Position numbers and translations under genes: made by a program
The notes under the pieces: model-generated
The model's database searches: none
Told to the model about the DNA's origin: nothing
What the model saw: the letters and a program-made list of their open reading frames with translations, nothing else
In this document: positions 25,992 through 53,563 of the stretch, piece by piece
How the letters are laid out: each line of letters starts with the position of its first letter
Numbering within the stretch: position 1 is the first letter of the stretch
Assembly (NCBI GenBank): GCA_011050075.1
Contig: DRGK01000017.1
Span: forward strand, 39,838-103,837
Source of the DNA: Candidatus Jorgensenbacteria bacterium
GTDB lineage: Bacteria; Patescibacteriota; Minisyncoccia; UBA6257; GWB1-50-10
Direction of reading: 5' to 3'
Length of the DNA: 64,000 nt

Positions 25992-27272
25992 ATGCGGGCG
26001 TACAACCCGACATTTGGTGTTCGTTCCTATGTTATAATACACTCAATGCGAAACATCAAATCGCTGAAACTGGCTGTTGAACGACAAATCGCCAACCCGC
26101 CCGGTGAAGTTTCTATTATTGAACTCGTTGATTTATTTGTGGAGTACGCATACAGCTCGCGTGCATCGGATATTCATATTGAACCGGGTGACGATAACGT
26201 AATAGTACGCCTGCGTATTGACGGTATCCTGCAGGATATTTTCACTTTACCCAAGGAACTGCAGTCAGAAGTGATCAGCCGCATCAAAGTACTTTCGGGA
26301 CTAAAAACGGATATTCATCACGTACCGCAGGATGGTAGGTTCAAAGCGAAGATAGGGGATGTGGAGGAGATTGATGTTCGTGTTTCCATTGCACCTACAT
26401 ACTCCGGTGAAAATGCAGTGATGCGTATCTTGGCGGAGACATCGCAGAAGTTCAAATTGGAAGACATTGGGTTTGATAAAAAGCAGTATCGTATGATAAT
26501 ACGCGCGATACACAAGCCGTATGGTATGATCCTCGCGAATGGTCCGACCGGCTCTGGAAAAACCACAACGCTTTACACGATTATCAAGGAGCTCAGTACC
26601 CGTGCGGTATCAATTATCACCATTGAGGACCCTATTGAATATTCTATTGAAGGCATTACTCAGATTCCCGTCAATGTACAGGCGGGGTTGAATTTTGCGA
26701 ACGGACTGCGTTCTATCTTACGGCAGGACCCGAACATTATCATGGTAGGGGAGATTCGCGACACCGAGACGGCGAGTATCGCGGTTAATGCGGCACTGAC
26801 CGGCCATCTCATGCTCTCAACGCTGCACACCAATGATGCGGCAACCACATTTCCGCGTCTTCTGGATATGGGTGTTCCTCCGTTTCTCGTCGCCTCAACA
26901 GTTAATATTGTTATTGCACAGCGTCTGATGCGAAAGGTATGCCAGAGTTGCCGGCAGCAGAAGTTCCTTTCTATTGCTGATATTGAACATCTTGGTCCGC
27001 TCGCCGAGGTATATATAGAAAAGAAAGTGTATACCGTAGGTGCCGGATGTGATGATTGTGACGGACTGGGTTATCGGGGCAGAGTTGGCATCTTTGAAGT
27101 ACTGTCGGTTAATGAGGAAATTCGTTCACTGATTGCTAACCGCTCAAGCGCTTCACAGATCAAGCAGGCGGCCGTAAAAAATGGTATGCATACCATGACT
27201 CAGGGAGCATTTGAAAAAGCAATACAGGGTGAAACGACCATTGAAGAAGTACTCCGTATGATATATGAGTAA
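25992..27272 (+). CDS. pilB: Type IV pilus assembly ATPase (PilB/GspE family)
   Basis: Walker A GPTGSGKTT; Asp/His boxes; tetracysteine CQSC…CDDC; GYRGRVGIFEVL; short form lacking the long N-domain. Confidence 0.85.
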   Translation: MRAYNPTFGVRSYVIIHSMRNIKSLKLAVERQIANPPGEVSIIELVDLFVEYAYSSRASDIHIEPGDDNVIVRLRIDGILQDIFTLPKELQSEVISRIKVLSGLKTDIHHVPQDGRFKAKIGDVEEIDVRVSIAPTYSGENAVMRILAETSQKFKLEDIGFDKKQYRMIIRAIHKPYGMILANGPTGSGKTTTLYTIIKELSTRAVSIITIEDPIEYSIEGITQIPVNVQAGLNFANGLRSILRQDPNIIMVGEIRDTETASIAVNAALTGHLMLSTLHTNDAATTFPRLLDMGVPPFLVASTVNIVIAQRLMRKVCQSCRQQKFLSIADIEHLGPLAEVYIEKKVYTVGAGCDDCDGLGYRGRVGIFEVLSVNEEIRSLIANRSSASQIKQAAVKNGMHTMTQGAFEKAIQGETTIEEVLRMIYE

Positions 27273-28368
27273 AAAACCGCGTAAGAATATACAAGTATCA
27301 CTCTTGCATTTTTTCAATGTTACGTTGATACCGTTACAGGAAAAGGTTAACTTTGCGCGCCATCTCTCAATAGGCATCAAAAGCGGCTTGTCTTTGCTCG
27401 ATACGTTGGATTTGATCAAACAGCAGACGTCGTCCAAGCGTTTTTCTGCGATGGTATCTCGTATCATGGAGGATATTAATAACGGCCAGTCATTAGCAGA
27501 TAGTCTGGAACGGTTTAATTATGTGTTCGGCCACCTGTTTATTAGCATGGTTCGCGTCGGAGAAGTTGGCGGGAACTTATCGGGAACGCTCGCGTATCTT
27601 TCTAACGAACTAAAAAAACAGAGAGAGCTTCATAATCGTGTGAAGTCGGCAATGATATACCCCGCGATTATTTTGATAGTGACGATAGGCATCACCGTGT
27701 TTCTCACTCTCTTTATTTTTCCTAAAATTCTCCCTATATTTCAAAGCTTGGGCGTACAGCTGCCGGCCAGCACACGGCTGATCATACAGACACTTTCATT
27801 TCTTGATAATTTTGGATTCTTGTTATTAGTCAGTATGGCGGTTTTTGCTATTGCGGTACGGGCGCTTCTATTTATACAGAAAGTTCGATACGGTATGCAC
27901 GCAGTGTCTTTGCGAATTCCATTTGTCTCGACGTTAATCATTAATGTAACCATTACGAGCTTTAGTCGTGTGCTCGCGGCGCTCCTCAAGAGTGGTATGA
28001 CACTACTGGACGCGCTCGTAGTTGTAAAAACAACTATCTCAAATTTGGTGTATCAGAAGCACGTCGAACAAATGATAGATGTTGTTCGACGTGGTGAAGA
28101 GATGACCAAGTACCTCAAGAAATATCCAAAACTATTCCCGCCGATGCTTGTCGGAATGATCAAGGTAGGTGAGGGAACCGGTAATTTAGAAGACAACCTG
28201 CTCTATCTTGCCGAGTACTACGAAAGCGAAGTTGATGAGACCGTCAATAACCTAACCACCATTCTTGAGCCGCTTCTCCTGCTCTTTATGGGTGTCATCG
28301 TTGGATTCATAGCGCTTTCCATTATCACACCGATTTATAAAGTAACGCAGGGACTAAACATTCGCTAA
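27265..28368 (+). CDS. pilC: Type IV pilus / type II secretion platform protein (PilC/GspF family)
   Basis: Two GspF repeats, 3 TM, ~367 aa; overlaps the pilB stop. Confidence 0.85.
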   Translation: MSKKPRKNIQVSLLHFFNVTLIPLQEKVNFARHLSIGIKSGLSLLDTLDLIKQQTSSKRFSAMVSRIMEDINNGQSLADSLERFNYVFGHLFISMVRVGEVGGNLSGTLAYLSNELKKQRELHNRVKSAMIYPAIILIVTIGITVFLTLFIFPKILPIFQSLGVQLPASTRLIIQTLSFLDNFGFLLLVSMAVFAIAVRALLFIQKVRYGMHAVSLRIPFVSTLIINVTITSFSRVLAALLKSGMTLLDALVVVKTTISNLVYQKHVEQMIDVVRRGEEMTKYLKKYPKLFPPMLVGMIKVGEGTGNLEDNLLYLAEYYESEVDETVNNLTTILEPLLLLFMGVIVGFIALSIITPIYKVTQGLNIR

Positions 28369-28853
28369 TGCTGTCCCTCAAACGTAAAACCTATAAACCC
28401 CTACCTACCGGCAGGCAGGTAAAATCTCAAAAAGGGTTCACTCTCCTTGAGATAATGATCGTTATTGGCCTCTTTGCTTTGCTCGTAGGCATTAGTATAC
28501 CGTTTGGACTTGATGTATACCGCAGCTACGTACTAATTTCCGAAACACGAAATATGGTTAGTTTCCTGCGACGCGCGGAGACGTTGTCTTTCACCAATAC
28601 CAGGAATGATTCGTATGGAGTTATGGTCATGAACGATCGATTCGTTGTGTTTCGTGGTGCGTCGTTTGCAACGCGTGATACTGCATTTGATGAAGAGTAT
28701 CTACGCTCGCCATTAGTAATCGTGTCGGGTATCGCGCATATTGTGTTTGCTGCGGTGACGGGAAGACCAGACATAATGGGTACCACAACATTCAGCAACG
28801 GCGTAAATGAACAAACAGTATTTATTAATGAACATGGCACACTTTTCTGGTGA
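28368..28853 (+). CDS. Prepilin-type (class III signal) pseudopilin with long basic leader
   Basis: …KPLPTGRQVKSQKG|FTLLEIMIVIGLFALLVG: Gly(-1), Phe(+1), Glu(+5) then a hydrophobic helix. Confidence 0.75.
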   Translation: MLSLKRKTYKPLPTGRQVKSQKGFTLLEIMIVIGLFALLVGISIPFGLDVYRSYVLISETRNMVSFLRRAETLSFTNTRNDSYGVMVMNDRFVVFRGASFATRDTAFDEEYLRSPLVIVSGIAHIVFAAVTGRPDIMGTTTFSNGVNEQTVFINEHGTLFW

Positions 28854-30249
28854 AAAGGGACAATCTCTCATAGAAATTCTTATTGCGTTCACACTCATCG
28901 TGCTTGGTATCGGGTCGGCGACGATACTGGTGTTTGGTGGACAAGGGCTGCTTATTGACAGGGGAAATACGGTACAAGCTCGTTCTCGTGCACAGGAAGG
29001 GTTACTTGCGGTAGAGCAGATGATACAGAACGATTGGGATTCGGTGTCAAATGGTACGTATGGCATTGTGTTCACCAACGGTACCTGGCAGCTATCCGGC
29101 GAAAGTACTATTGATGACCGATATACACGGTATGTCTCGGTAACCAGTATTGATGATAATCGGAAGGAGATTACAAGCAGTGTTGTATGGGAAACGGGTG
29201 GAGAAGGTTCCCGGATTGTTGAGTTTGTAACACTGGTTACCAACTGGCAAAATGTTGCACCGCCGTCACCGGATCCGGGAGATACGGGAGGTGGCGGAGT
29301 GAGCGGTAACTGGCAAAACCCGAGAACACTGGGTTCTGTTGATCTGGGTCCGGGAAATGAAGCATCAGACATTGATGTGATCAATAAGATCGTTTATATG
29401 TCTGCCACCGCGTCTTCTAAGAACAAGCCTGACTTCTTTATTATTGATGCAACCGATGGGGAAAATCCGGTAATGATATCTGAGCTTAATACCGGTCCGT
29501 CACTCAATTCCATTGATGCCAGCGGCAACTATGCATATGTGGCAAACGATGATGCGCAGGCACAGTTGCAGGTTATTGATGTGAGTGACATTAATAATCC
29601 TTCTATTACTGCGTCCCTTGAAGTTGCTGCTGACGCTGGAGGTACTGCTATATTCTTTACTAACGCAAAAATATATCTGGGCACCTACCAAAACGGTGCG
29701 GCTGAGTTTTATATCATTGATGTTTCGGACCCCTTAAACCCCAGCGTACTAGGCTCGTATGAAATGAACGGAACGGTGCGTGATATATATGTACGTAATA
29801 GTCGTGCATATATCACCGTTGAACGGGAAGTGGATACGGTAGCTATACTAAACGTTTCAACTCCTTCATCAATCGTATCGGAAGGAGGCGAATATATTGA
29901 TGAAGCATACGGTATCATGAGCATACGACCAGCACTCACCTTTATCGGCATTGATACTGATTTGGTTATTGCGGATACTGCGAATGCAGCCGCAGTGGCT
30001 ACAATTGGCTCTATCGGAATTGGCGGGAACGTCAATGATATTGCGGTGAGGGATTATCTCGTCTTTATTGCAACATCAAATAACAACAAAGAGTTCCAGA
30101 CAATTAACGTATCTGATCCAAGTAACCCATCAGTTCATTCTTCTTTTAATTTTTCGCAGGTTGGAACCGGTATTGATTACGAGGATAATATTGTCTACAT
30201 CTCAGTGAGAAGCAATGACGCTTTACGTATCATCACATCATCTCCATGA
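28807..30249 (+). CDS. Pilin-like protein fused to an LVIVD-repeat beta-propeller domain (candidate pilus tip/adhesin)
   Basis: N-terminus …GEKGQSLIEILIAFTLIVLG (prepilin-like); at least 4 LVIVD-type repeats (AYVANDDAQAQLQVIDVSDINNPS; IYLGTYQNGAAEFYIIDVSDPLNPS; AYITVEREVDTVAILNVSTPSS; VFIATSNNNKEFQTINVSDPSNPS). Confidence 0.65.
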   Translation: MNKQYLLMNMAHFSGEKGQSLIEILIAFTLIVLGIGSATILVFGGQGLLIDRGNTVQARSRAQEGLLAVEQMIQNDWDSVSNGTYGIVFTNGTWQLSGESTIDDRYTRYVSVTSIDDNRKEITSSVVWETGGEGSRIVEFVTLVTNWQNVAPPSPDPGDTGGGGVSGNWQNPRTLGSVDLGPGNEASDIDVINKIVYMSATASSKNKPDFFIIDATDGENPVMISELNTGPSLNSIDASGNYAYVANDDAQAQLQVIDVSDINNPSITASLEVAADAGGTAIFFTNAKIYLGTYQNGAAEFYIIDVSDPLNPSVLGSYEMNGTVRDIYVRNSRAYITVEREVDTVAILNVSTPSSIVSEGGEYIDEAYGIMSIRPALTFIGIDTDLVIADTANAAAVATIGSIGIGGNVNDIAVRDYLVFIATSNNNKEFQTINVSDPSNPSVHSSFNFSQVGTGIDYEDNIVYISVRSNDALRIITSSP

Positions 30250-30764
30250 AGACTCATAAACCCCTACCTACCGGCAAGCAAGTAAAATCTCAAAAAGGAT
30301 TCACGCTTATTGAAGCGCTTATCTATGCCACGCTATTAGGTATCTTTTTAGGCAGTGTCATTATTGTAGTTGGGAACATTCTTGCCTCTACCGATAGCAC
30401 ACTGGTGCGTAATGAGGTACTTGCCAATCAAGAGTTCGTTGAACAGAAACTTTCATGGCTTGCAGAACAGGCGACCGCGGTTACAGAACCACTCTCAGGA
30501 AGTTCCTCAACGCGAGTAGTTTTCACTGAACCGATATCCGGCACTAATCCGGCAATTTTTGAACTGCAGGACGGGAAAATTATGCTAACCCTCGGTTCCG
30601 GTGAAAGCGCTGCGCTGACCAATAATCGCGTGCGCGCGTCCGATTTCACCATTACCCACTACACATTAAACGGTGCATCACTGATACGAGTCTTATTTGG
30701 ACTTGAGCACATTGTCTACAGTCAAGTAACGAGCACGACCACACTCACCTTTATTATTCCGTAG
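30246..30764 (+). CDS. Prepilin-type pseudopilin with long basic leader (paralog of 28368..28853 at the N-terminus)
   Basis: MKTHKPLPTGKQVKSQKG|FTLIEALIYATLLGIF. Confidence 0.75.
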   Translation: MKTHKPLPTGKQVKSQKGFTLIEALIYATLLGIFLGSVIIVVGNILASTDSTLVRNEVLANQEFVEQKLSWLAEQATAVTEPLSGSSSTRVVFTEPISGTNPAIFELQDGKIMLTLGSGESAALTNNRVRASDFTITHYTLNGASLIRVLFGLEHIVYSQVTSTTTLTFIIP

Positions 30765-30767
30765 CAT

Positions 30768-31163
30768 ATGCAACACGATACATATCAACAGGGGTACGTA
30801 GCGGTTATGAGCGCTATTATCATTACCGCTATTCTGCTTGTCGTCGCATTGACCTTTAGTTCCAGTAGTTTTATGGGTAGGTTTGATACACAAGCAGTGG
30901 AATTCAAGATACTGACACGGAACTTAGCGCAGGGATGTATCGCGCATGCACAGTTAATGCTCGCGCTGGGAAGCTATACTGGCAATGAGGATGTGGTAGT
31001 GGGTGCATATACCTGCCGCGTCGTCTCCGTTACGCAGGGGAGCGGTATCATAACAGTGCAGGTAACTGCAATCATAGAGGACCACACTACAAATCTTGAA
31101 GCAGTCTTGGATAGCGCTACACTCGCTATTAATTCAGTTATAGAGATAAGTACGTTTGAGTAA
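30768..31163 (+). CDS. Membrane-anchored hypothetical protein in the pilus operon (PilX/minor-pilin-like?)
   Basis: N-terminal hydrophobic helix (VAVMSAIIITAILLVVAL) without a canonical G-F-x-x-x-E; operon position. Confidence 0.4.
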   Translation: MQHDTYQQGYVAVMSAIIITAILLVVALTFSSSSFMGRFDTQAVEFKILTRNLAQGCIAHAQLMLALGSYTGNEDVVVGAYTCRVVSVTQGSGIITVQVTAIIEDHTTNLEAVLDSATLAINSVIEISTFE

Positions 31164-31230
31164 ATATGGTATACTATCAATAGATAAGCTTTTTTAAGAA
31201 AAGGTCGTGTTTTTTTCAACATTATAGTAA

Positions 31231-31701
31231 ATGTCTAAAAATAGAGTGCAAAAAGTTAAAACAGAAGGTGGTTTTACATTAATTGAACTTTTGGTTGTTA
31301 TCGGCATCATCGCCATCCTTGCGGGTGTGGTGATTGTTGCCCTAAACCCGGCGCGACAGTTCGCGCAGGCACGCAACAGCCAACGTTGGTCAAATGTAAA
31401 TGCGATTTTGAATGCTGTAGGTCAGAACTTAGCTGATAACCGTGGGATATTCACCTGTGCTGCAGGAGTTATTCCAACGTCTGCGACAAATATGTCATCC
31501 TCTACATATGATATAGCGACATGTATTGTACCAACATACATGCCGACTATGCCATTTGACCCAAGTGATGCGAGCGCATACTACACCGATACGGCTGATT
31601 ACAACACGGTGTACAGTATTGTACGCAGTGCGACGACCAGCCGAATTACTGTCTCTTCACCATCAGCAGAATTAGAAGAAGCAATTGCAGTAACGAGATA
31701 G
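31231..31701 (+). CDS. pilA: Type IV major pilin (PilA-like) with prepilin leader
   Basis: MSKNRVQKVKTEG|GFTLIELLVVIGIIAILAGVVIV; own promoter and strong terminator; C-terminal Cys pair (FTCAAG…IATC). Confidence 0.8.
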   Translation: MSKNRVQKVKTEGGFTLIELLVVIGIIAILAGVVIVALNPARQFAQARNSQRWSNVNAILNAVGQNLADNRGIFTCAAGVIPTSATNMSSSTYDIATCIVPTYMPTMPFDPSDASAYYTDTADYNTVYSIVRSATTSRITVSSPSAELEEAIAVTR

Positions 31702-31815: not shown

Positions 31816-32088
31816 ATGAAATTGCCGGAGTTTTTTAAACCAATTTTGTGGTCTTATGACTTTCCTGCCATAGATTCTGAGAAGAACAAGAAAGTTATTA
31901 TTGTGAATACGATAAATTACGGTGATTTAAAGCATTGGCATTGGTTGATACAACATTATGGGAAAGAGGCAGTTAAAGATGTTTTAGAACAGATCCCTTC
32001 AAGTGAAATAAGACCGCGGGCGCTTCGTCTCGCGACAACTATTTTCTCTATTAAAAACTTCAATTATGCACCTCGAGGTATTAACTGA
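31816..32088 (+). CDS. Small protein partner of the downstream nucleotidyltransferase (possible antitoxin-like component)
   Basis: 90 aa; overlaps the next ORF by 23 nt (coupled); AT-rich segment. Confidence 0.35.
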   Translation: MKLPEFFKPILWSYDFPAIDSEKNKKVIIVNTINYGDLKHWHWLIQHYGKEAVKDVLEQIPSSEIRPRALRLATTIFSIKNFNYAPRGIN

Positions 32089-32683
32089 GAAGGGCAAAGA
32101 AATTTTTTCCAGGCTTGATCGTTTTAATAAATTTTACCTCGCTGGTGGGACAGCATTAGCTTTGCAAATCGGACATAGGGCTTCAATTGACTTTGACTTA
32201 TTTTCCAAAAAAGAAATCCAGAAGGACTTTCTGTCTGAGATTGAGGAAGCTTTTCCTGGAGAGAACATATCAGTAGTTGTAAATAATCCCGATGAGGTAA
32301 CTGTTTTCGTAAGTGAAACGAAAGTTACTTTTTTGAAATATCCTTTCCCGTTGATATATGACCTTGTTAATTATGAAAGCGTAAACTTAGCAACCATTAA
32401 AGAAATAGCCGGAATCAAGGCCTATACAATTGGCAGAAGAGGATCTTTTAAAGATTACGTAGATTTATACTTTATTCTTTCTGAGAAGTATTTTTCTCTG
32501 AATGAGATTATTGACGTAGCTGAAAAGAAATACGGAAGTGATTTTAACTCACGACTTTTTCTTGAACAGCTTCTTTATTTGGAAGATATTACCGATACTG
32601 AAATTGTATTTTTAAAAGACAGCGTAGATAAAAAAGAACTAAGAAAATTTTTTGAGGAAGAAATAAAAAAGATTAAGATATAA
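32066..32683 (+). CDS. AbiEii/DUF1814-like nucleotidyltransferase (toxin-like NTase of a two-gene module)
   Basis: FYLAGGTALALQIGHRASIDFDLF matches the AbiEii N-terminal GGTAL…S/EDxDF core. Confidence 0.5.
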   Translation: MHLEVLTEKGKEIFSRLDRFNKFYLAGGTALALQIGHRASIDFDLFSKKEIQKDFLSEIEEAFPGENISVVVNNPDEVTVFVSETKVTFLKYPFPLIYDLVNYESVNLATIKEIAGIKAYTIGRRGSFKDYVDLYFILSEKYFSLNEIIDVAEKKYGSDFNSRLFLEQLLYLEDITDTEIVFLKDSVDKKELRKFFEEEIKKIKI

Positions 32684-33623: not shown

Positions 33624-35117
33624 ATGACTAAGTTTAAAACATACTATCTTTACTTCACCGTCTTTGTAACGGGTGCAGTAGTATTGATAATTGAAATCCT
33701 GGGAACAAGAATTCTCGCACCATTTTATGGTACAACAATTTTTGTGTGGTCTTCACTTCTCAGTGTCGCGCTCGGTTTTCTCGCGCTCGGCTATTGGGTG
33801 GGTGGTATTTGGGTTGATAGGAAGCCAAGCTTCTCCAATTTTTATGGGATCGTTTTTCTTGCTGCCACCACACTAGTACTGGCTATTAAACTGAACCGAG
33901 TTGTTCTCGTTTTCTCAGACCAATTCGGTTTGAAGTTTGGTCCACTCATTGCTTCGGTTTTACTTTTTGCGATACCACTTTTCTTATTGGGCATGATAAC
34001 GCCTTTTGCTATACGTTTGCGTACTAAATTAATAGAAAATGTGGGAACACGATCTGGGGGTATTTTTGCTATAGCGACCATTGGATCATTGATAGGAGCT
34101 CTACTCTCGGGTTTCTTCCTCATACCCATTTTATCTATAACGAATATTTTTTATATCACCACCTTACTTCTTGTAGTAATATCTGTTCTTGGTCTTTTAA
34201 TTTCGGGAAAAGAACAAATTAGTGGGAACCGTTATAGATGTCTCTTACTTTTCTTGATTTTTCTTGCTGTACTCTCAATTCCTTTGTTTAATATTGAAGC
34301 ACATAAGAATTCAAGAATTCTTTTTCAAAAACAAGGTTTCTACGGTGACATAAAAGTAGTTGAAATCGGAGAATCACGTTGTCTTGTAGTTAATGGGATG
34401 ACACAGACCTGTGTAAAAATAGAAACATATGACGGAGGTCTGTCATACATAGAAGAAATAGGGAGGATTTTAGCACTACGGCCGCAAGACAAAGACATCT
34501 TGCTTTTAGGACTTGGTGGAGGAAGTATAATGTCTTTTTTTTCAGAAATTCAGGAAATAGACATAATTGAAATAGCCCCCAAAATTATACATATCGCAGA
34601 AAGATTTTTTAACTTTCATCCAGACTTAAATCAGCGCATTATAATAGATGATGCCCGCAGTTTTTTGAGGAGGACAGACAAAAAATACGACCTTATTATT
34701 GCCGACGTGTTTTCGGCTACTACAATCCCTCTCCATCTTTCCACAAAAGAGTATTTTGAACTTTTAAAGAGTCACTTACATTCGGAGGGTCTTGTTCTTT
34801 TTAATTTTATTGGTCGTACTGGGCCAGAGGATCGGTATACAACCTCCTTTGTACGGACGCTACGTTCCGTTTTTCCCTCGGTGATAATTACAAGTCCAGT
34901 ACCAGGACTACAAAGTATGGTTCTCCATGCCTCGGTTGATGAGTCATACGCTCCTCGTATAGGTGAGGAGTTTTACGAAGTACCGGTAGCTGACGATATG
35001 GGAATACTATTGACTGATAATAAAAACCCCCTGGAATTGCTCGCCTTACCTAACCTTGAAGTGTTGCGAAGGAATTTAAAGTCATCCGGTGGTTTTGATT
35101 TGTTTTTCACCAACTGA
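33624..35117 (+). CDS. Membrane-anchored spermidine synthase-like (polyamine aminopropyltransferase fold) protein
   Basis: ~7 TM N-terminal domain fused to LLLGLGGGSIM…IDIIEIAPKII…IIADVF (SpeE/AdoMet-MTase-like). Confidence 0.6.
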   Translation: MTKFKTYYLYFTVFVTGAVVLIIEILGTRILAPFYGTTIFVWSSLLSVALGFLALGYWVGGIWVDRKPSFSNFYGIVFLAATTLVLAIKLNRVVLVFSDQFGLKFGPLIASVLLFAIPLFLLGMITPFAIRLRTKLIENVGTRSGGIFAIATIGSLIGALLSGFFLIPILSITNIFYITTLLLVVISVLGLLISGKEQISGNRYRCLLLFLIFLAVLSIPLFNIEAHKNSRILFQKQGFYGDIKVVEIGESRCLVVNGMTQTCVKIETYDGGLSYIEEIGRILALRPQDKDILLLGLGGGSIMSFFSEIQEIDIIEIAPKIIHIAERFFNFHPDLNQRIIIDDARSFLRRTDKKYDLIIADVFSATTIPLHLSTKEYFELLKSHLHSEGLVLFNFIGRTGPEDRYTTSFVRTLRSVFPSVIITSPVPGLQSMVLHASVDESYAPRIGEEFYEVPVADDMGILLTDNKNPLELLALPNLEVLRRNLKSSGGFDLFFTN

Positions 35118-35131: not shown

Positions 35132-36547
35132 ATGCCCCGCTTTTTAAATAGAAATTCCTTAGTTTTCATAGCACTTGCTACACTTGCAACTTTGCTTGTC
35201 TTTACCGTTTTGCCCTCTATCACAAATGCAGGCGGTACGTTTACCACCAACCAAGACAGTTTTAGGTTTAAAGGCGATACAGGCGGAGAAACGGCAACAG
35301 ACTGGATTGATGCCGAAGACACGAATATTACTCAAGCAAAAAACAGCAACTTTCGCATACGTATTCACTTTCATGAATCAGGTAATGCAGCCGGCGATGT
35401 GACACCTCTTTTAGAGTACAAAACTGCCTCTGGTAATGCATGTGCTAATACGACAGGGTGGACAACTATTACAACTGCAACGACAAATGCATTTGCTCTT
35501 GTCGATTCGTCACAGTTTGTTGAAGCAGTTGCAACTACTGAACAGTTATCAAGCTTTGGCGGAATAGGTTTTGTTGCTGGAGAACTCTTGGACCAAACTA
35601 ATCCCGGTACAATCATTACCATCGGTGCAAAAAACGAAAGTGAGTATGTATGGAACATGAAAGCAACGGACAATGCGGTCGATGGCACGGCGTACATATT
35701 TCGGGTGAGTAATAACGGCACCAACTTAACAAACTATAATGCCTGCCCGCAGGTAACAGTTCCTGCGGGCAATGCACCGCCCGTTGTTTCAAACGTTGCG
35801 TTGGATGGAGGAACAGCAATCACGCTCACAGAAAACACAACTAAAGCTGTTAGCGCTACGGCAGATGTATCAGATCCGAACGGCGCTGACGATATTATTT
35901 CAGCGACCTCAACCATCTACCGTTCCGGTGTCGGTGCGGGATGTACCGCTGATGATGAGAATTGCTACAAAATAGCGAGCTGCACGTTTTCTGGTGCGAC
36001 GAGTACCGTGACCTGCACGGCGAATATACAGTTCTTTGCCGACCCGACCGATGCAAGCTCTACTGCTTATTCTGCTCAGGATTGGCAGGCAGAAATTACG
36101 GTAACCGACTCTGCCAGTGCAACCGGTGCATCGAGCACTCTATCCGGCGTAGAGCTCAATACACTCTGGGCTATCGATATAACCGCAACTATTAACTACG
36201 GGGCTGTTAGTCCAACCGCAGATACAGGGAGTACAAATCAAAGCGTTACGGTTACCAACACAGGTAATGCGGCGATCGATATAGAGGCATCGGGGACTGA
36301 TATAACGCTTGGCGGTAGTACGATAGGAGTTGCCAATCAAAAGTATGCGACCTCCACCTTTACGTACTCGAGCTGTACAATCTGTACGGCACTTTCCTCA
36401 ACCCCCGCTGCATATGAGGTTGATTTACTCAAGCCGACCTCGGCCACGCCGGTTACAGATTTAATCTACTGGGGACTTGCGGTGCCAAACGGCACTGCGC
36501 AAGGGGTGCACAGCGGAACCAATACCTTTACCGCAATAGGCGATTAG
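35132..36547 (+). CDS. Secreted Thr/Ala-rich surface protein, paralog A
   Basis: Signal peptide; conserved Cys-containing module (RSGVGAGCTADDENCY); C-terminal VTVTNTGN… CARDB/DUF11-like module; ends …GTNTFTAIGD. Confidence 0.55.
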   Translation: MPRFLNRNSLVFIALATLATLLVFTVLPSITNAGGTFTTNQDSFRFKGDTGGETATDWIDAEDTNITQAKNSNFRIRIHFHESGNAAGDVTPLLEYKTASGNACANTTGWTTITTATTNAFALVDSSQFVEAVATTEQLSSFGGIGFVAGELLDQTNPGTIITIGAKNESEYVWNMKATDNAVDGTAYIFRVSNNGTNLTNYNACPQVTVPAGNAPPVVSNVALDGGTAITLTENTTKAVSATADVSDPNGADDIISATSTIYRSGVGAGCTADDENCYKIASCTFSGATSTVTCTANIQFFADPTDASSTAYSAQDWQAEITVTDSASATGASSTLSGVELNTLWAIDITATINYGAVSPTADTGSTNQSVTVTNTGNAAIDIEASGTDITLGGSTIGVANQKYATSTFTYSSCTICTALSSTPAAYEVDLLKPTSATPVTDLIYWGLAVPNGTAQGVHSGTNTFTAIGD

Positions 36548-36593
36548 TACAGGGTTGAATATGATATAATATACATAAAGAGGATGTAATAAT

Positions 36594-37541
36594 ATGAGAA
36601 GTACACTTTCTCTTCTTTTAAAAGTTTATATTTTCGCGATTCCCCTCGCGCTGCTACTGGTCGGGGGACTTTTAATGCTCACAAACACTATTTTAGCAGG
36701 CACTTCAAGCACATCAGTAACCGTTCAAGGCGCTGTCCCCACAGTTACCGTTGTTAACATTTCTCCCGATCCAATTATCCCGACCGAAAATGCAACGACG
36801 AGCATTACCATTACTGCAACAATTTCCGATTCAAACGGATGCGATGATGTATTCACAAGCGGTACTATCGCGGTCGCACTCTATCGGTCAGGTGTTGGTG
36901 CCAGTTGCTCGGTCGATGACAACAACTGTTATCAGAACATCACTTGGGCGGAGGTTGGCAATACCTGCGGGGGCGGTGCAGATACAAGCGGGGATATGGT
37001 TGCCACGGCAACGATATGGTACTTTACCGAAGCAACCGATGCGAGTTCAACATACTCAGGGGAAACATGGCAGGCTCAGGTCAAGGCAGTTGATGAGTCT
37101 AATGCAAGCTCTACCGCTACCGACGCGTCGCCCCCTGAGCTCAATTCGGTATATGCTCTCACTGTTGACAGTGCCATTGCGTACGGTTCTATGTCAGCAG
37201 ATGCTACGAGTACCTTGTCTGAGATTGGACAGTCAACGACGACGGTAACCAACACGGGAAATTACAAGATTGATACCGAGGTATCGGGTACCGATATGAC
37301 GGGTTCAGGTACCATTATTGCAAGCAAACAAAAATATGCTACCTCATTGTTAGGATATGAATCACTTACATACACACTCTCAACGTCTGCTACTGCAAGA
37401 GATTTAAATATTGTGAAAGCGACCTCTTCTTCTACGCCGTCAACGCAAGATACCTACTGGGGTATTTCTATCCCTAGCGCTCAGGCGGAAGGAGGTTATA
37501 GCGGAACCAACACATTTACCGCTATCTATTCAGCCGATTAG
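36594..37541 (+). CDS. Secreted Thr/Ser-rich surface protein, paralog B of 35132..36547
   Basis: Signal peptide; same modules (RSGVGASCSVDDNNCY; TTVTNTGNYKID…; ends …GTNTFTAIYSAD). Confidence 0.55.
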   Translation: MRSTLSLLLKVYIFAIPLALLLVGGLLMLTNTILAGTSSTSVTVQGAVPTVTVVNISPDPIIPTENATTSITITATISDSNGCDDVFTSGTIAVALYRSGVGASCSVDDNNCYQNITWAEVGNTCGGGADTSGDMVATATIWYFTEATDASSTYSGETWQAQVKAVDESNASSTATDASPPELNSVYALTVDSAIAYGSMSADATSTLSEIGQSTTTVTNTGNYKIDTEVSGTDMTGSGTIIASKQKYATSLLGYESLTYTLSTSATARDLNIVKATSSSTPSTQDTYWGISIPSAQAEGGYSGTNTFTAIYSAD

Positions 37542-37576
37542 TGCAGAGTCTACCAATATAGTAGCTAACGCGGCAA

Positions 37577-38608
37577 TTGTCCGCGCTTTGTTTTCTTAGT
37601 ATGATTACAGATATGCATATACGTTCTCTAACGTTGATTGTCATTACGTTGTCCTTACTTGCACCATCGGTAGTGGGTGCGTTCGGGGTTTCACCTCCAT
37701 TTATCACAGTACATAAACTTGTGGCTGGCTCGCGTTATGAAACAACAATTACCCTCGTTCAGGGACAGCCGGATGTTGATTTGGAAGTTAAGGCAGTGTT
37801 TGATGTACCTGAAAAGATTAGAGAATGGTTCAGTGTTGATAAGGGATATCAGTTTATAATCCCCGCTGGCGTTCAGCAGTTCCCGATACAAGTTGTTATT
37901 CAGGTTCCGAAAGATACCGGTCTTGGTATTTATAACGGGCACTTACGGATTAACACTGTTCCACAACGGAAAGAAGGTGAACAGATCGCAATCTCCGTTG
38001 GCGCACGCATCGATATCAACATTACGGTAGGGGATGATATTGTCGTTGATTTTTCAGTTAAGAAAATTGACATCTCTGACATTAGAGAAAACGAGTCACC
38101 TCAGATCGTTGTCACTATAGAGAATACGGGGAATGTTCCCATTACACCGGACAGAGCAACATTTGACCTGCTTGATAAGTACGGGGAAGTACGGCTCGGC
38201 TTTGCACAAACGGAGGACTTGCCAGAGACGCCAGCCTTTGAAACTAAAACTTTTGTCGTAGCATTTCCCATAGACATTAAGCTCGGCGTGGGAGAGTACT
38301 GGGGTGAAGCACGATTATATAGAGGTGGGACAATAATTGGGGATGTAAAAACTATCTTCAATGTAACTCCAAGACCAAATTATATACTCTTTATTGGTAT
38401 TGGCTTACTTATTATTGGAGCCGGTGTTTCTATATTTATATTTAAAAAGAAAGCAAGTCGTAAGCCAACGAGTCGTAAGAGAACAGTAACAAAAAAGAAA
38501 GCTGTAAGGAAAACTGCCCGTAAACCAAAAAAACAAGTTAGTAGTAAGAAAAAATTGAATAAGAAAAAGACAGTAAAAACAAAGCAAAAGAAGAGCATTG
38601 GCTCATGA
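37577..38608 (+). CDS. Secreted CARDB-like surface protein with C-terminal TM anchor and poly-lysine cytoplasmic tail
   Basis: Signal peptide; …VVTIENTGNVPITPD…; TM (ILFIGIGLLIIGAGVSIFIF), then KKKASRKPTSRKRTVTKKKAVRK…. Confidence 0.5.
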   Translation: MSALCFLSMITDMHIRSLTLIVITLSLLAPSVVGAFGVSPPFITVHKLVAGSRYETTITLVQGQPDVDLEVKAVFDVPEKIREWFSVDKGYQFIIPAGVQQFPIQVVIQVPKDTGLGIYNGHLRINTVPQRKEGEQIAISVGARIDINITVGDDIVVDFSVKKIDISDIRENESPQIVVTIENTGNVPITPDRATFDLLDKYGEVRLGFAQTEDLPETPAFETKTFVVAFPIDIKLGVGEYWGEARLYRGGTIIGDVKTIFNVTPRPNYILFIGIGLLIIGAGVSIFIFKKKASRKPTSRKRTVTKKKAVRKTARKPKKQVSSKKKLNKKKTVKTKQKKSIGS

Positions 38609-40149
38609 AATGGTACGCGTTTACGGCAGTTTGTTTCGCAGTAATCGGACTCATGATAACGGTGGGCATTACAAATGCTGGAACAGCTTCCGTAACGGTA
38701 ACGGTAACGCTTGCCGAGTGCTCTGACAGTATTGACAACGACGGTGATTTTTTAACCGACTATCCCAATGACACGGAGTGCGATTCGGGTACCGATAACA
38801 GTGAAAACATTGCCGGCACCGAGACGCATGCAACATCTACTATTGAAACAAGCGGGGGCAGTTTTTCTTTTGATAATGCTGATAGTTTAGCCGTTGATTT
38901 TACGTTTCAGAACGGGTTTCATGGTAGTTCAGTACGGTTATTCGTGAACTCGTATGCAACTAGCTCTTTTGAATCGAGCAAGCCAGCACCTTCTGGGAAG
39001 AGCTTCGTTGGTAAAACATACGACATCATTCTGTACGAGAACGCATCACCGAATAATTCTATTGCAACAACTTCCAAAGCTATTACCATCGTGATGCAAT
39101 ATTTGGATAGTGATGTAAGCAGTATCGATGAAAGCAACGTTCTGCCGTATCGTTGGAGTACAAGCACATCGGCGTGGGCGATAATATCTGGCAGCTCACT
39201 TGATACATCAAACAATAAAGTAACTTTTTCTACCACCGATTTCAGTTCATTTAGCTTGCTCGGCACAAACCTTTCTGAATTCCAATGCAGTGACGGTATT
39301 GACAATGATGGGGATGGTAAGATTGACTATCCATCCGACCCTGGGTGTTCATCAACAACCGATGATAATGAAACAGACCCGCAGCAGGCACCAGGTGGCG
39401 GTGGAGGCGGCGGTGCTACGATAACAGCACCGCCTCAGGTTACATTCAGCGGGTTAGCATATCCCGGCAGTAAAGTAACAATACTGAAAGATGCTCAAGT
39501 AGCTGCGGTAACTATAGCCGGTCCCGATGCGAAATTTAAAGCGGGCCTGTCCAAACTCTCAACCGGAAACTACAATTTCGGCATTTGGGCTGCTGATACA
39601 TCCGGTCGAAGATCGGTTACACATACATTTGCACTGAGCGTTAAGCCCGGCTCTTCTGTTACGGTAAGCGGCATTTTCCTGCCTCCTACCATATCAATAG
39701 ACAAAAGTGAGGTAAGGAAAGGTGATGTATTGGGTATTGCGGGGCAGAGCGCTCCTGAGGCTAACGTTTCTCTTATTGTTCATTCACATTCTATTGTGAA
39801 GAAGGTGACCGTTGATAAGAGCGGGGCGTGGTTTTATAAACTGGACACCACCGAGCTTGAGTATGGTAAGCACTCCACACAGGCGAAGTCAGAAACGGAA
39901 AACGATATCAGTTCACTCTCGCAACTACTGCTTTTCAAAGTTGGTACAAAAAGCAAGAAAGCCATTCCCTTAGCAGTAGTAGAACTTAAGGGTGACGTGA
40001 ACAGCGATGAGAAAGTTAATTTGGTTGATTTCAGTATCGCAGCGTATTGGTATAAAAGACCGTCCCCCCCATCCGCCGTTGATTTAAACAACGATGGGAA
40101 AGTTGATTTAGTGGACTTCAGTATTATGGCATACTGGTGGACGGGATAG
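38605..40149 (+). CDS. Secreted protein with Ca-binding Asp-rich Cys-flanked motifs and a C-terminal dockerin domain
   Basis: Signal peptide; CSDSIDNDGDFLTDYPNDTEC and CSDGIDNDGDGKIDYPSDPGC; C-terminal GDVNSDEKVNLVDFSIAAYWY…DLNNDGKVDLVDFSIMAYWW, a dockerin type-I-like duplicated Ca-loop/helix. Confidence 0.65.
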   Translation: MKWYAFTAVCFAVIGLMITVGITNAGTASVTVTVTLAECSDSIDNDGDFLTDYPNDTECDSGTDNSENIAGTETHATSTIETSGGSFSFDNADSLAVDFTFQNGFHGSSVRLFVNSYATSSFESSKPAPSGKSFVGKTYDIILYENASPNNSIATTSKAITIVMQYLDSDVSSIDESNVLPYRWSTSTSAWAIISGSSLDTSNNKVTFSTTDFSSFSLLGTNLSEFQCSDGIDNDGDGKIDYPSDPGCSSTTDDNETDPQQAPGGGGGGGATITAPPQVTFSGLAYPGSKVTILKDAQVAAVTIAGPDAKFKAGLSKLSTGNYNFGIWAADTSGRRSVTHTFALSVKPGSSVTVSGIFLPPTISIDKSEVRKGDVLGIAGQSAPEANVSLIVHSHSIVKKVTVDKSGAWFYKLDTTELEYGKHSTQAKSETENDISSLSQLLLFKVGTKSKKAIPLAVVELKGDVNSDEKVNLVDFSIAAYWYKRPSPPSAVDLNNDGKVDLVDFSIMAYWWTG

Positions 40150-40168: not shown

Positions 40169-41068
40169 ATGAAACAATTCTTGATCAGTATTTGTCTCTT
40201 ATTCTTCGCATTCGGCATAAGTATGGTGAGTGCCGTTGAGCTATCTTTTGATTCTCCCGTATATAAAATAGGACTGGGGAAATTTATTGCTATTGATGTC
40301 TTAGTAGATTTCCAAGGTGAGGCAATCAATACATTAGAAGGAAGAATACACGTTCCCGAATCTTTTGATATTGTAAACACAAACACTGCGGGATCGGTGA
40401 TAAATCTCTGGATTCAGGAACCGAAAATAGAAGTTAATAGTGTCTATTTCTCCGGCATCATACCGGGTGGATTTGGTAGTCAGCTTAGTGACGGTACGGG
40501 CATCGGTAACGAGTTGGAGATATTAACTATTACATTAGAAGCCAAGAGAGAAGATGCAAACAGCATTACGGCAGGGGACACCAAAGCACTTTTGAACGAT
40601 GGATTTGGAACGGAAACCGATATAGCTACAAAGCCATGGTTTTATGAAATTTCTGAAAGCTATACCGGGGGAGGCGTTGAAGCAGTAATAGATAGCGAGC
40701 CGCCCGGGAATTTTAAGCCGGAAGTTACCAGAAGTGAAACCGTGTTTTCAGGGCAATACTTTGTAGTTTTCAGTACACAAGATAAAGAATCGGGAATGAA
40801 ACGCTATGAGGTTGCAGAACAGCGCGGAAGAAAAACTGAGAACTACTCAGTTTTGGACTGGAAAATTACAAAAAGCCCCTATATTTTGGAAGACCAGACA
40901 TTAAGGAGCTACATCTACGTAAAAGCAATTGACAATACGGGGAATGAGATAATTGCAGTAGTTCCGCCGCATAACCTATTAGTACGGTATTGGTATGTAC
41001 TCATTTTGTTTATAATAATAGTAGGAATTAGTTTCGCTTATACTAAAACAAAGCGAAAGAATTCATGA
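40169..41068 (+). CDS. Membrane-anchored cohesin-like domain protein 1
   Basis: Signal peptide; beta-rich domain alignable to type-I cohesin (…GRIHVPESFDIVNTNTAGSVINLWIQEP…); C-terminal TM (YVLILFIIIVGISFAY) plus KTKRKNS. Confidence 0.5.
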   Translation: MKQFLISICLLFFAFGISMVSAVELSFDSPVYKIGLGKFIAIDVLVDFQGEAINTLEGRIHVPESFDIVNTNTAGSVINLWIQEPKIEVNSVYFSGIIPGGFGSQLSDGTGIGNELEILTITLEAKREDANSITAGDTKALLNDGFGTETDIATKPWFYEISESYTGGGVEAVIDSEPPGNFKPEVTRSETVFSGQYFVVFSTQDKESGMKRYEVAEQRGRKTENYSVLDWKITKSPYILEDQTLRSYIYVKAIDNTGNEIIAVVPPHNLLVRYWYVLILFIIIVGISFAYTKTKRKNS

Positions 41069-42147
41069 AGAAAAAGACATTACTCTTAAGTACGATACTG
41101 ATTTTATTTGGCGTGGTTACAACTGCCCACGGGGCTAACTTGTATTTCTCTCCATCGGGAGGAAGTTTCTATAAAGGCGAGAATTTTACCATTGGTGTTT
41201 TCGTAAATACAGACAGGGCCACTAATGCCATCTCCGGCGTCTTAACGTTTCCCACTAGATACGTTGAGGCGGTGAGCGTGCGCAAGAGTAATTCCATAGT
41301 CAATCTTTGGGTTCAGGAACCCTCATTTTCCAATATAGGTGATTTCGGCAATATCAGGTTTGAAGGTGTTATTCTCAACCCAGGCTTTACTGGCACCAGA
41401 GGAAAAATACTTGATGTTGTTTTTCGAGTAAAGAACAATGGTTTTATGAATTTGGAATTCGTTGAGGTCGCTATTCTAGCTAACGATGGGTTAGGAACAA
41501 ATATAGCAGTTCCGGACGGTGAAGCTAGCTTTGTACTAAAATCAAAACCGGTATACTCACCGGAGTCTGTAGAAATAACTGGAGGAAAACAAGAATTATC
41601 TGCAACCTCAACGCCACCGATTATAATAGTCAGGGAAGTAAGACCAGAACCACCATCAGGTATACTTGGATTATGGGAAGTTTTACCGACCTGGATAAAA
41701 ACCATCACTTTGGCTCTTGTTGGTCTGGCAACAATTCTACTCGGACTTGTTATTATCAGTCTCGGTATAATTGTTTTGATTTGGCTTTGGAGTTATATAT
41801 GGCGTAGGAGGAATATAATTGAGGGTTGGCTTGTATCATTTCCGAGAGCTGTAAATCATTTTACACGCAGAGTCCTTGTGTTTATACGCGGAGCAGAAAA
41901 GGAAATAAAAGGAGATTTGAAATATAGCATTCCACGAGTGAAAGACATAGTTAAGGAAGCAGGGCGCGAGCCACCGTTAAAGCAGTTAGTGAAAGATTAC
42001 TTTAGCTCAATACGTAAAATCATAAAACGCTTTTTCACGAAAAATGAATCGTGGCAAGAGAGTGTACTAGATGACATATCAAATTCTAAAACACCTGATC
42101 CTAAAAGGTCTGAAGATATAATACAGGAAGAGGAAGAACAGCTATGA
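41065..42147 (+). CDS. Membrane-anchored cohesin-like domain protein 2 with conserved cytoplasmic tail
   Basis: …GENFTIGVFVNTDRATNAISGVLTFPTRYVEAVSV… / …GKILDVVFRVKNNGFMNLEFVEVAIL… resemble CipA cohesin strands; TM; ~100-aa basic tail. Confidence 0.5.
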   Translation: MKKKTLLLSTILILFGVVTTAHGANLYFSPSGGSFYKGENFTIGVFVNTDRATNAISGVLTFPTRYVEAVSVRKSNSIVNLWVQEPSFSNIGDFGNIRFEGVILNPGFTGTRGKILDVVFRVKNNGFMNLEFVEVAILANDGLGTNIAVPDGEASFVLKSKPVYSPESVEITGGKQELSATSTPPIIIVREVRPEPPSGILGLWEVLPTWIKTITLALVGLATILLGLVIISLGIIVLIWLWSYIWRRRNIIEGWLVSFPRAVNHFTRRVLVFIRGAEKEIKGDLKYSIPRVKDIVKEAGREPPLKQLVKDYFSSIRKIIKRFFTKNESWQESVLDDISNSKTPDPKRSEDIIQEEEEQL

Positions 42148-42461
42148 TAAAGGCGATATTTTTCTTTATTGTGGGAGTGGCAGCAGTAATTGTGTTACTG
42201 CTCGGTGTTGGTTTAGTGGTAGTTGTCTTGGTCTGGTTTTGGAACTACGGACGATACGAAGGTGGAAAACTTCTTAGGAAAGTCCTTGTCTCCGCAAGGG
42301 CAACGGAGGAAGAAATCGAGAGTGATGTGCAGTATAGCGTCCGGAGAGTAAAGAAAACCCTTGAAAAAACCAAGAAGAATCTATCATTGAAAGAAATGGT
42401 GAATGCTTACTGGAAATCGGTTGAAAAAATTGTAGAGCGCTTTCTTACGAAAAACAAGTAA
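42144..42461 (+). CDS. Small membrane protein, paralog of the TM plus cytoplasmic tail of 41065..42147
   Basis: WFWNYGRYEGGKLLRKVLVSARATEEEIESDVQYSVRRVKKTLEK… parallels WLWSYIWRRRNIIEGWLVSFPRAVNHFTRRVLVFIRGAEKEIKGDLKYSIPRVKDIVKE…. Confidence 0.5.
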   Translation: MIKAIFFFIVGVAAVIVLLLGVGLVVVVLVWFWNYGRYEGGKLLRKVLVSARATEEEIESDVQYSVRRVKKTLEKTKKNLSLKEMVNAYWKSVEKIVERFLTKNK

Positions 42462-53443: not shown

Positions 53444-53527
53444 GCCCAGGTGTCGGAACTGGTAGACGAGCTGGCTTGAGGGGCCAGTGAGCGCAAGCTC
53501 GTGCGGGTTCGACTCCCGCCCTGGGCA
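53444..53527 (+). tRNA. tRNA-Leu (anticodon GAG)
   Basis: GCCCAGGTG…anticodon loop TTGAGGG…long variable arm…GCGGGTTCGACTCCCGCCCTGGGCA. Confidence 0.8.
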
Positions 53528-53559: not shown

Positions 53560-53563
53560 AAAT

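Follow-up and report, generated by a model that had tools for sequence, protein, structure and literature searches.

A conserved, putative cell-surface gene cassette of Patescibacteria with a C-terminal two-domain module and a WxLIP-like membrane protein

How CPR/Patescibacteria cells attach to their hosts or substrates is little understood, and few of the proteins at their surface carry an annotation. Two neighbouring genes on a contig of Candidatus Jorgensenbacteria bacterium (DRGK01000017.1) encode proteins with almost the same C-terminal ending. A preliminary description proposed that this ending could be a sorting or attachment signal, or the part recognized by an adjacent docking system. 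What is the ending, which unit of the two proteins is conserved, and which neighbouring gene product might hold them at the cell? The window referred to below is the whole stretch of 64,000 nucleotides that was analysed.

Two secreted paralogues and their common ending

The two genes, here called A and B, and their C-terminal motifs are located as follows.

35132–36547, + strand: gene A, an open reading frame for the "large" module protein of 471 aa, aligned to B over residues 197–469; signal peptide (about residues 1–33), extra N-terminal domain (about 34–200) and C-terminal two-domain module (about 201–471).
36509–36535, + strand: C-terminal motif of A, HSGTNTFTA (residues 460–468), homologous to residues 302–310 of B; predicted last β-strand of domain 2 (D2).
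36594–37541, + strand: gene B, the "small" module protein of 315 aa, with signal peptide and module only; domain 1 (D1) at about residues 40–180 (TEN, TD.NG and the C105–C112 pair) and D2 at about residues 186–312 (TNTGN, YWG and the terminal strand).
37497–37523, + strand: C-terminal motif of B, YSGTNTFTA (residues 302–310); predicted strand G of D2, antiparallel to strand 226–232.

Proteins A and B were 40% identical over 290 aa (BLASTP, E = 2e-47), with residues 197–469 of A corresponding to residues 40–311 of B, and the alignment left A with ~170 additional N-terminal residues. The DNA of the shared region matched over 26 bp only, so the genes are paralogues that have diverged, rather than the assembly duplicates that the preliminary description had cautioned they might be. 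Both proteins carry Sec/SPase-I-type signal peptides, and the signal region of B was modelled as a helix (residues 4–28) followed by ILA|G. Both proteins are acidic, and 16% of their residues are threonine, compared to 6.6% across the window ORFs with 120 aa or more. The motifs SDPNGADD, YRSGVGAGC, DDENCY, VTVTNTGN and SGTD and both C-terminal endings were all found in the A and B sequences. The genes had thus been described correctly as tandem paralogues for secreted, Thr-rich proteins with common modules, the first with an extra N-terminal domain. This domain occurs in 8 of the 31 related loci described below and had no sequence match in the PDB. Scans of A, B and the downstream gene G3 against Pfam, NCBIfam and PHROGs returned no family.

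Of 242 relatives, 234 had the pattern Y-[TS]-G-T-N-T-F-T-A within their final 30 residues, mostly 1–5 residues from the protein end, and Y302 and G304 of B were invariant or nearly so. Such extreme conservation of a 9-mer next to the C-terminus speaks for a true sorting signal, which a dedicated enzyme akin to sortases, exosortases or archaeosortases would recognize and process. However, the signals of the LPXTG/sortase, PEP-CTERM/exosortase and PGF-CTERM/archaeosortase systems are tripartite, with a motif, a transmembrane (TM) helix and a basic cluster, whereas neither a TM helix nor a basic cluster followed the motif in any of the 242 relatives, whose hydrophobic runs in the last 40 aa did not exceed 9 residues. 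Six relatives had 110–642 additional residues beyond the motif. The window ORFs contained neither a TLxTC sortase motif nor an LPXTG substrate, and no sorting-signal model of NCBIfam was matched.

Structure prediction pointed to a different role. In the AlphaFold2 model of B, the motif forms a buried-type β-strand of a folded domain (DSSP E306–312, pLDDT about 97), and the DCA couplings formed a ladder of three antiparallel rungs (309–229, 307–231 and 305–233, with z of 5.4, 4.8 and 4.2, respectively). According to the model and the couplings, the YxGTNTFTA ending is the final β-strand that closes D2 and no sorting signal. It would be conserved for structural reasons because it closes this domain, and it is possibly an interface too. 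The preliminary description had itself noted that a common motif unrelated to sorting would count against a signal, and the hairpin pattern φxφP...G.Y.GT.T. was also found in unrelated Ig-like domains, such as the N-terminal domain of GH123. The sorting-signal reading is already largely refuted, and we consider it highly improbable. More narrowly, the case teaches that striking conservation of a C-terminal peptide can reflect merely its role as the closing strand of a domain.

The module family and the gene cassette

The conserved unit is the whole ~270-aa two-domain module, both domains of which are Ig-like β-sandwiches; AlphaFold2 predicted B as two complete 7-stranded sandwiches. The Cys pair noted in the preliminary description (C-x6-C, C105/C112 in B) is conserved and ranked 6th of 36,856 residue pairs by covariation. 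The module family comprises 2,910 representatives (1,268 with E ≤ 1e-30), spans protein lengths from 252 to 4,157 aa and is covered by models of neither Pfam nor NCBIfam. In 233 of 242 relatives (96%), the module ends no more than 12 aa from the protein C-terminus, preceded in various members by Laminin_G_3, DUF2341, Gly_rich_2, Ig_Rha78A_N or DUF7483 domains. Eight of the 242 members have an insert of about 110–376 aa nested inside the module directly ahead of the terminal hairpin, which is kept. When alignment members were scanned individually at E ≤ 10, merely scattered weak matches of Ig type appeared (fn3_5, GH123_N, DUF4625, CARDB), and profile searches against PDB sequences gave the GH123 hairpin as the sole match (E about 0.07–0.08).

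The C-terminal domain (CTD) of T9SS substrates is likewise a conserved extreme C-terminal element on secreted proteins of very different lengths. That element, Por_Secre_tail, spans ~80–100 aa and occurs in diderm, Bacteroidota-type hosts, whereas the module has 270 aa and two domains, tolerates nested domains and is found in Patescibacteria. Neither A nor B matched Por_Secre_tail in NCBIfam or Pfam.

Downstream of B, the window contains the following features.

37569–37595, + strand: GC hairpin CGCGG-CAATTGT-CCGCG with a T-run in the gap between B and G3, terminator- or attenuator-like by consensus match only.
37601–38608, + strand: G3, WxLIP-like membrane anchor with probable start ATG at 37601 (335 aa; the mechanical ORF begins with TTG at 37577); signal peptide, invariant FGVSPP at the mature N-terminus, two PapD-like/ASH Ig domains, TM helix and Lys-rich tail.
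38605–40149, + strand: G4, secreted protein; two acidic double-disulfide repeats, bacterial Ig domains, and a type I dockerin at the C-terminus.
40169–41068, + strand: G5, N-terminal cohesin-like domain and C-terminal TM anchor.
41065–42147, + strand: G6, paralogue of G5 with cohesin-like domain, TM helix and cytoplasmic tail.
42144–42461, + strand: G7, 105-aa TM protein, paralogous to the TM and cytoplasmic tail of G6.

Related loci were searched with an alignment of 16 closer sequences as the query. The resulting synteny set contained 31 loci (30 distinct), including 26 GTDB species representatives, from Jorgensen-, Lipton-, Giovannoni-, Staskawicz- and Lloydbacteria (Paceibacteria-type), Levyibacteriota and Peribacteria, among which the identity of B was as low as about 30%. 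At least two module genes were present in all 27 loci with room upstream, usually the large one before the small one, and G3 lay immediately downstream on the same strand in 29 of 31 loci. G4 followed G3 directly in 24 loci and G5/G6 were found in 21, while one locus (L095) had 3.3 kb downstream without G3. A and B are therefore part of a conserved cassette of six genes in Patescibacteria, unannotated and putatively of the cell surface. Two neighbours were rejected as cassette members: the upstream T4P operon, which adjoins only in the window and in locus L001, and an MFS/spermidine-synthase gene, which occurs in 2 of the 31 loci. In the literature searched on WxL, cohesin or dockerin in CPR, nothing about the module family was found.

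Could the cassette encode a fibre or pilus, with B as the major subunit of a polymer, A as a tip with a head domain and G3 as a PapD-like chaperone or base? The PapD-like fold of G3 is all that the cassette has in common with chaperone-usher pili. No usher was found in its genes, its hosts have no outer membrane, and G3 is membrane-anchored; a sortase or isopeptide motif is likewise lacking. Pilins lack a strand, whereas both domains of B are complete Ig folds in the model. The conserved N-terminal segment TSVTVGNAxP was considered as a donor strand and rejected, as it covaries with its own TD.NG loop (47–80/81); this arrangement is more like a cadherin-type junction. That segment and the C-terminal strand both covary within B, although intra- and inter-subunit contacts are inseparable by covariation. 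Nor is the hairpin after B conserved: in many related loci the gap that would contain it is missing. Overall, a fibre seems quite unlikely.

Comparison with WxL clusters and the candidate partners of the module

The published WxL cluster encodes a small WxL protein (the domain only), a large WxL protein (N-terminal binding domains and a C-terminal WxL domain) and a WxLIP with a TM helix (PMC9772566, PMC10599100). The csc clusters of Lactiplantibacillus plantarum and loci A–C of Enterococcus faecium, where the WxLIP consists of DUF916, DUF3324 and a TM helix, are among the closest known systems. The cassette resembles them in the nearly constant C-terminal placement of the module (233/242), the clustering of small and large paralogues, and the adjacent G3 (29/31). 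It differs in having no LPXTG partner and in the addition of a dockerin protein and two membrane-anchored cohesins. The hosts are different as well, as more than 91% of WxL sequences are from Firmicutes, and the WxL domain, at ~180 aa, is smaller than the two-domain module of 270 aa.

At the domain level, A and B had no match to WxL (PF13731) at E ≤ 1, and neither had 61 family members at E ≤ 10. Compared by hhalign with 29–37 real WxL sequences, the module reached a probability of ≤3%, and the last about 20 columns, the hairpin, alone aligned (P 5e-4 to 0.03). When ORFs from Firmicute loci were ranked by the module HMM, 19 of the top 20 were WxL proteins against a background of 15%, with redundant loci and E ≥ 0.003; in the reverse test, 7–8 of the top 15 were module ORFs against a background of 3%, again with individual E-values ≥0.003. 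The locally similar segments were not colinear between large WxL proteins and the module. The hallmark of WxL domains is two W-x-L motifs on adjacent antiparallel strands in a buried hydrophobic platform (PMC9772566). W159-Q-A in D1 and F308-T-A were considered as a degenerate pair (W159-x-A and F308-x-A) and rejected, as their strands are not adjacent: the C-terminal strand showed its lowest coupling with strand 159–166 (maximum 0.44), and AlphaFold2 places W159 and F308 in different domains. With complete sandwiches, predicted B also has no obvious groove for the strand insertion proposed for WxL–WxLIP pairs.

Judged by the family alignment and an AlphaFold2 model, set against real WxLIPs, G3 has the WxLIP architecture of a signal peptide, two Ig-like domains, a C-terminal TM helix (residues 269–293 of the 343-aa ORF) and a basic tail within ~290–380 aa. 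Trimmed of TM helix and signal peptide, G3 and WxLIP aligned with an hhalign probability of 48.7%; the 97.9% obtained at full length was discarded, since the TM helix and basic tail had inflated it. No match to DUF916 or DUF3324 was found in any of 52 G3 family members at E ≤ 10. The mature N-terminus of G3 reads FGVSPP..L..GS, whereas the WxLIP signature NQIDKxxxYFDLK is lacking.

Since WxL domains are reported to bind peptidoglycan (PMC9772566), the module might itself bind the envelope (peptidoglycan, S-layer or glycan), with G3 as a co-expressed but independent surface protein. The C-terminal position in 96% of members agrees with this, and the acidic, Thr/Ser-rich composition suggests possible glycosylation. 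However, no known wall-binding domain (SLH, LysM, CWB or WxL) was detected in the module proteins with Pfam and NCBIfam, and the tight gene order with G3 across very divergent lineages argues for functional coupling. We regard direct envelope binding as unlikely.

The adjacent docking system that had been suspected from the sequence is real at the level of domain profiles, by which G4 and G5/G6 are a cohesin–dockerin pair. G4 matched Dockerin_1 of Pfam (29.2 bits, cut-off 22.9), Big_6 and the NCBIfam model acid_disulf_rpt. Of 29 members of the G5/G6 family, 11 matched Pfam Cohesin (best 2.8e-8), the G5 and G6 of the window having no match individually, and the family profile matched the cellulosomal cohesins 5aoz (E = 4.6e-4) and 5m2o (E = 1.1e-3). 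G7 matched the C-terminus of the G6 homologue in locus L001 (BLASTP, E = 3e-12). As in cellulosome-type scaffolds, a type I dockerin is thus paired with a family cohesin match, but the cassette has no glycoside hydrolases, its cohesins are single-domain and anchored by TM helices instead of SLH domains or sortase, and A and B carry no dockerin. The module or its hairpin might nevertheless act as a non-canonical dockerin recognized by G5/G6. Cohesin proteins co-occur in 21 of 31 cassettes, and in Liptonbacteria (P0050/P0056) the protein at the G4 position is module D1 fused to a dockerin, linking the module family to the pair. Against this, a canonical partner, G4, is already encoded beside the cohesins, A and B lack EF-hand-like repeats as well as a dockerin, and ten loci contain module genes and G3 without a cohesin within reach. 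We judge this very unlikely. With dockerins absent from A and B, the likeliest partner of the module is G3, not the cohesins.

A proposed surface-display system

Our preferred reading, to which we give a probability of roughly one half, is that the cassette encodes a non-covalent, WxL-cluster-like surface-display system of CPR. A and B would be exported by Sec to the cell surface, where the module, as two rigidly coupled Ig-like β-sandwiches, would form the cell-proximal base. G3, a predicted type-I membrane protein with two PapD-like Ig domains, would contact and hold this base. The large paralogue, which is A in this cassette and reaches up to 4,157 aa in relatives, would face outward with its variable N-terminal or nested domains, presumably for adhesion, and the small paralogue B would be the bare module. 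The G4 dockerin and the membrane-anchored G5/G6 cohesins may provide a second, parallel tethering pair in the same surface complex. Part of the attachment proposal survives in this form: the whole 270-aa module behaves like an attachment device, but the C-terminal motif itself does not.

The module and G3 are a concrete candidate partner pair, and the cassette marks out a large family of proteins, so far unannotated, with 2,910 representative clusters. The module HMM would offer a handle for cataloguing candidate CPR adhesins. A bolder reading, possible but doubtful, is that of a phylum-wide, undescribed CPR display apparatus, in which a new 270-aa module sits on a distant WxLIP relative together with a membrane-anchored cohesin–dockerin pair, with lineage-specific binding domains swapped in, as the main attachment device of episymbionts. 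If true, the module would be a universal "plug" for LamG, DUF2341, Kelch-like and glycine-rich domains, at the N-terminus or nested in loops of proteins that can exceed 4,000 aa, and WxL-type clusters would be far older and more widespread than Firmicutes. If the WxL/WxLIP link holds, an anchoring principle so far attributed to Lactobacillales and Bacillales alone would reach ultra-small bacteria.

Two secreted paralogues with a common C-terminal module

Two consecutive genes encode the proteins A and B, and the ORF positions assigned to them in the preliminary description were both exact:

35132-36547, forward strand: A, ORF of 471 aa
36594-37541, forward strand: B, ORF of 315 aa

Both proteins are acidic, begin with a Sec/SPase-I-type signal peptide and contain 16% Thr (6.6% for the ORFs of the window), which bears out their description as secreted and Thr-rich; the motifs and the two endings quoted for them were all found. 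BLASTP aligned them with 40% identity over 290 residues (E 2e-47). Since residues 197–469 of A aligned to residues 40–311 of B, A has ~170 extra N-terminal residues, in agreement with the additional N-terminal domain reported for the first gene. The nucleotide-level match between the two genes was only 26 bp, ruling out an assembly duplication, and judging from their sequences A and B are old paralogues.

The common part is a C-terminal module of ~270 aa with two Ig-like domains (D1 and D2). No Pfam, NCBIfam or PHROG model matched A or B. A word-index search with B yielded 100 homologues, all labelled hypothetical and all from Patescibacteria or CPR metagenomes (Jorgensen-, Lipton- and Giovannonibacteria, Paceibacterota and Levyibacteriota). 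When a profile of 61 homologues was searched against 1.84 billion proteins, 2,910 representative clusters were matched at E ≤ 1e-3 and 1,268 at E ≤ 1e-30. Our literature search turned up no publication describing the module family, nor any about WxL-like systems of CPR.

For counts of length, module position and motif, 242 family sequences were retrieved, with lengths of 252–4,157 aa. The module ended at most 12 residues from the protein C-terminus in 233 of them (96%). Longer relatives carry Laminin_G_3, DUF2341, Gly_rich_2, Ig_Rha78A_N or DUF7483 domains N-terminal of the module, while six (P0143, P0173, P0174, P0185, P0226, P0242) extend 110–642 residues past the C-terminal motif. Domains of 111–376 residues, such as Kelch-like repeats or DUF2341/LamG, are nested within the module in 8 of the 242 relatives (members listed with nested domains: P0145, P0197, P0129, P0166, P0153, P0183, P0231, P0201, P0217). 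They occupy three sites, and the final hairpin is retained; in several cases only this YWG...YxGTxTFxA hairpin remains after the insert, as expected if it is needed to close the fold.

The C-terminal motif as a structural strand

A true sorting signal had been one proposal for the conserved C-terminus. In 234 of the 242 relatives, the motif Y-[TS]-G-T-N-T-F-T-A indeed falls within the final 30 residues, usually with just 1–5 residues after it. However, none of the 242 has a hydrophobic run longer than nine in its last 40 residues, so the motif-TM-basic architecture of sortase-/exosortase-type signals is absent. The AlphaFold2 model of B, based on a 61-sequence alignment (pLDDT 93.3, pTM 0.79), has a signal helix followed by two seven-stranded beta-sandwiches, D1 (~50–176) and D2 (~189–312), in which residues 306–312 (NTFTAIY) form the last strand (pLDDT ~97).

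Mean-field direct coupling analysis (DCA; 272 sequences, Neff 239), independent of AlphaFold2, recovered the previously noted Cys pair (105–112 of B) and an antiparallel three-rung ladder of 309–229, 307–231 and 305–233 (z 5.4, 4.8 and 4.2; ranks 35, 55 and 101 of 36,856 pairs). The ladder joins the terminal strand to strand 226–232, immediately after the conserved TNTGN motif. A GH123 glycosidase has the same hairpin pattern, W.S.N.P.GT.AG.YTGT.TV.A, in its Ig-like domain at the N-terminus. The C-terminal motif is therefore a strand of the domain fold rather than a sorting signal. Covariation also linked the TEN motif of D1 with TNTGN of D2 (65–221), and the conserved N-terminal V.V.N..P segment with the TD.NG loop (47–80/81); combined with the motif pattern, these links hint at junctions of a cadherin-like kind, possibly stabilised by Ca2+.

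A conserved cassette with a WxLIP-like gene

We compared 31 loci (30 distinct): 4 from exact protein look-up, 26 from GTDB species representatives, and the window. At least two module genes were present in 27 of the 27 loci with room upstream, typically a long gene of 465–2,083 codons and then a short one of ~300–367 codons. A homologue of G3, the gene after B, was the next same-strand gene in 29 of 31 loci; of the other two, one was at a contig end and one lacked G3. The dockerin gene G4 came next in 24 loci; G5 and G6, which are paralogues, were found as a pair in 21. In locus L003 (2–2577), G3 is preceded by three small module genes in tandem, and for two of them BLASTP gave the same values (against A, 43.8% over 276 aa; against B, 41.7% over 278 aa), a sign of recent duplication. 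Loci L089 and L096, from records titled 'uncultured Gammaproteobacteria' (the taxonomy being the record label), hold a cassette variant whose module proteins are ~580 aa long and whose G3 is larger (375–377 aa).

The comparison placed the upstream pilus operon, AbiEii pair and MFS/spermidine-synthase gene outside the conserved unit. Other features of the window were:

25992-31701, forward strand: type IV pilus / T2SS-like operon, upstream of the cassette
25992-27272, forward strand: T2SSE ATPase of this operon
27265-28368, forward strand: T2SSF platform of this operon
28807-30249, forward strand: pilin-like protein of 480 aa containing LVIVD beta-propeller repeats
31816-32683, forward strand: two overlapping genes, for a 90-aa DUF6922 protein and a 205-aa AbiEii nucleotidyltransferase toxin
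33624-35117, forward strand: MFS / spermidine-synthase fused membrane protein (NCBIfam NF037959, E 4.7e-57), directly upstream of A
53444-54519, forward strand: four clustered tRNA genes (Leu-GAG, Thr-TGT, Thr-GGT, Trp-CCA)

The pilus operon has five pilin-like genes with N_methyl motifs, including the LVIVD protein; in L001, too, it precedes the cassette, but in the other loci it does not. The DUF6922/AbiEii pair, a type IV toxin-antitoxin-like module, is inserted between operon and cassette. Just 2 of 31 loci have the MFS/spermidine-synthase gene next to the cassette. The whole window has eight tRNAs.

G3 probably starts at ATG 37601, giving 335 aa in agreement with a public 335-aa entry. 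Between the stop codon of B and this ATG lie 59 nt, which include a GC-only hairpin of 5 bp and, after it, a T-run (37569-37595, forward strand). This element could act as a transcriptional attenuator downstream of the small paralogue; it is not conserved, as many related loci have no gap there. In the G3 family (82 matches), FGVSPP is invariant directly after the signal-peptide cleavage site. Two Ig-like domains come next, and the protein ends in a TM helix with a basic tail.

Firmicute WxL clusters comprise a small WxL protein that is the domain alone, a large one with N-terminal binding domains and a C-terminal WxL, and the membrane protein WxLIP (DUF916 + DUF3324 + TM), whose hairpin completes the WxL sandwich in an AF2 prediction (PMC9772566, PMC10599100). 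Real WxL loci were taken from metagenomes using the back-translated NQxDKxxxYFDLK pattern. Against 14 non-redundant WxLIPs, the full-length G3 family scored 97.9% in hhalign, an overestimate due to the TM helix and tail; without signal peptide, TM and tail it scored 48.7% (P 1.8e-4), colinear over 169 columns, compared with 1–2% for controls. In ectodomain-only HMM searches (--max), WxLIPs were 24 of the best 25 among 1,189 Firmicute-locus ORFs, and reciprocally the best nine of 1,893 CPR-locus ORFs were all G3. No G3 family member matched Pfam DUF916 or DUF3324. We conclude that G3 resembles WxLIP in its architecture, its predicted fold and its genomic role, and is probably a remote homologue.

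Between the module and WxL, hhalign gave at most 3% and no relationship except the terminal hairpin (I.VP.G...G.YtGTnTFT in the module, L.VPG...K..Y.TtLTWt in WxL). WxL ORFs were 19 of the top 20 in a rank test, with insignificant individual scores and matched segments that were not colinear, and the two candidate "[WF]xA" strands lay in separate domains with no coupling. Therefore, the module is not a WxL domain.

Cohesin–dockerin genes and a proposed surface display

In G4, a type I dockerin scored above the Pfam threshold, and acidic double-disulfide repeats and bacterial Ig domains are present as well. The N-terminal domain of G5 and G6 is assigned as a cohesin from sequence comparison: Pfam Cohesin matched 11 of 29 family members (best 2.8e-8), and the family profile matches solved cellulosomal cohesins. 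Both proteins end in a TM helix. A short ORF follows:

42144-42461, forward strand: 105-aa ORF overlapping the G6 end, paralogue of the G6 TM helix and cytoplasmic tail (BLASTP E 3e-12 to its L001 homologue)

At a Liptonbacteria locus (L077, 12115–12984), the G4-position protein is a 287-aa fusion of module domain 1 and a dockerin (P0050; also P0056), which by its predicted domains naturally links the module family to the cohesin–dockerin pair. The cohesins might alternatively recognise the module itself.

As the likeliest mechanism, we propose that A and B are secreted and that membrane-anchored G3, possibly along with the wall, would keep the C-terminal module at the cell surface, with the variable N-terminal or nested domains facing outward, where they may act in adhesion. 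The G4 dockerin, bound by the G5/G6 cohesins, would form a second tether within the same complex. Alternatively, the module could bind the wall directly, without G3, or B could form a polymer with A at its tip. Of the earlier idea about the C-terminus, an attachment role linked to the neighbouring surface genes is reasonable, while the terminal peptide itself as a sorting signal was not supported. We read the CPR locus as a WxL-cluster-like surface-display cassette in which the putative anchoring module differs and a cohesin–dockerin pair is added; it sits in a phylum with poorly understood surface biology.
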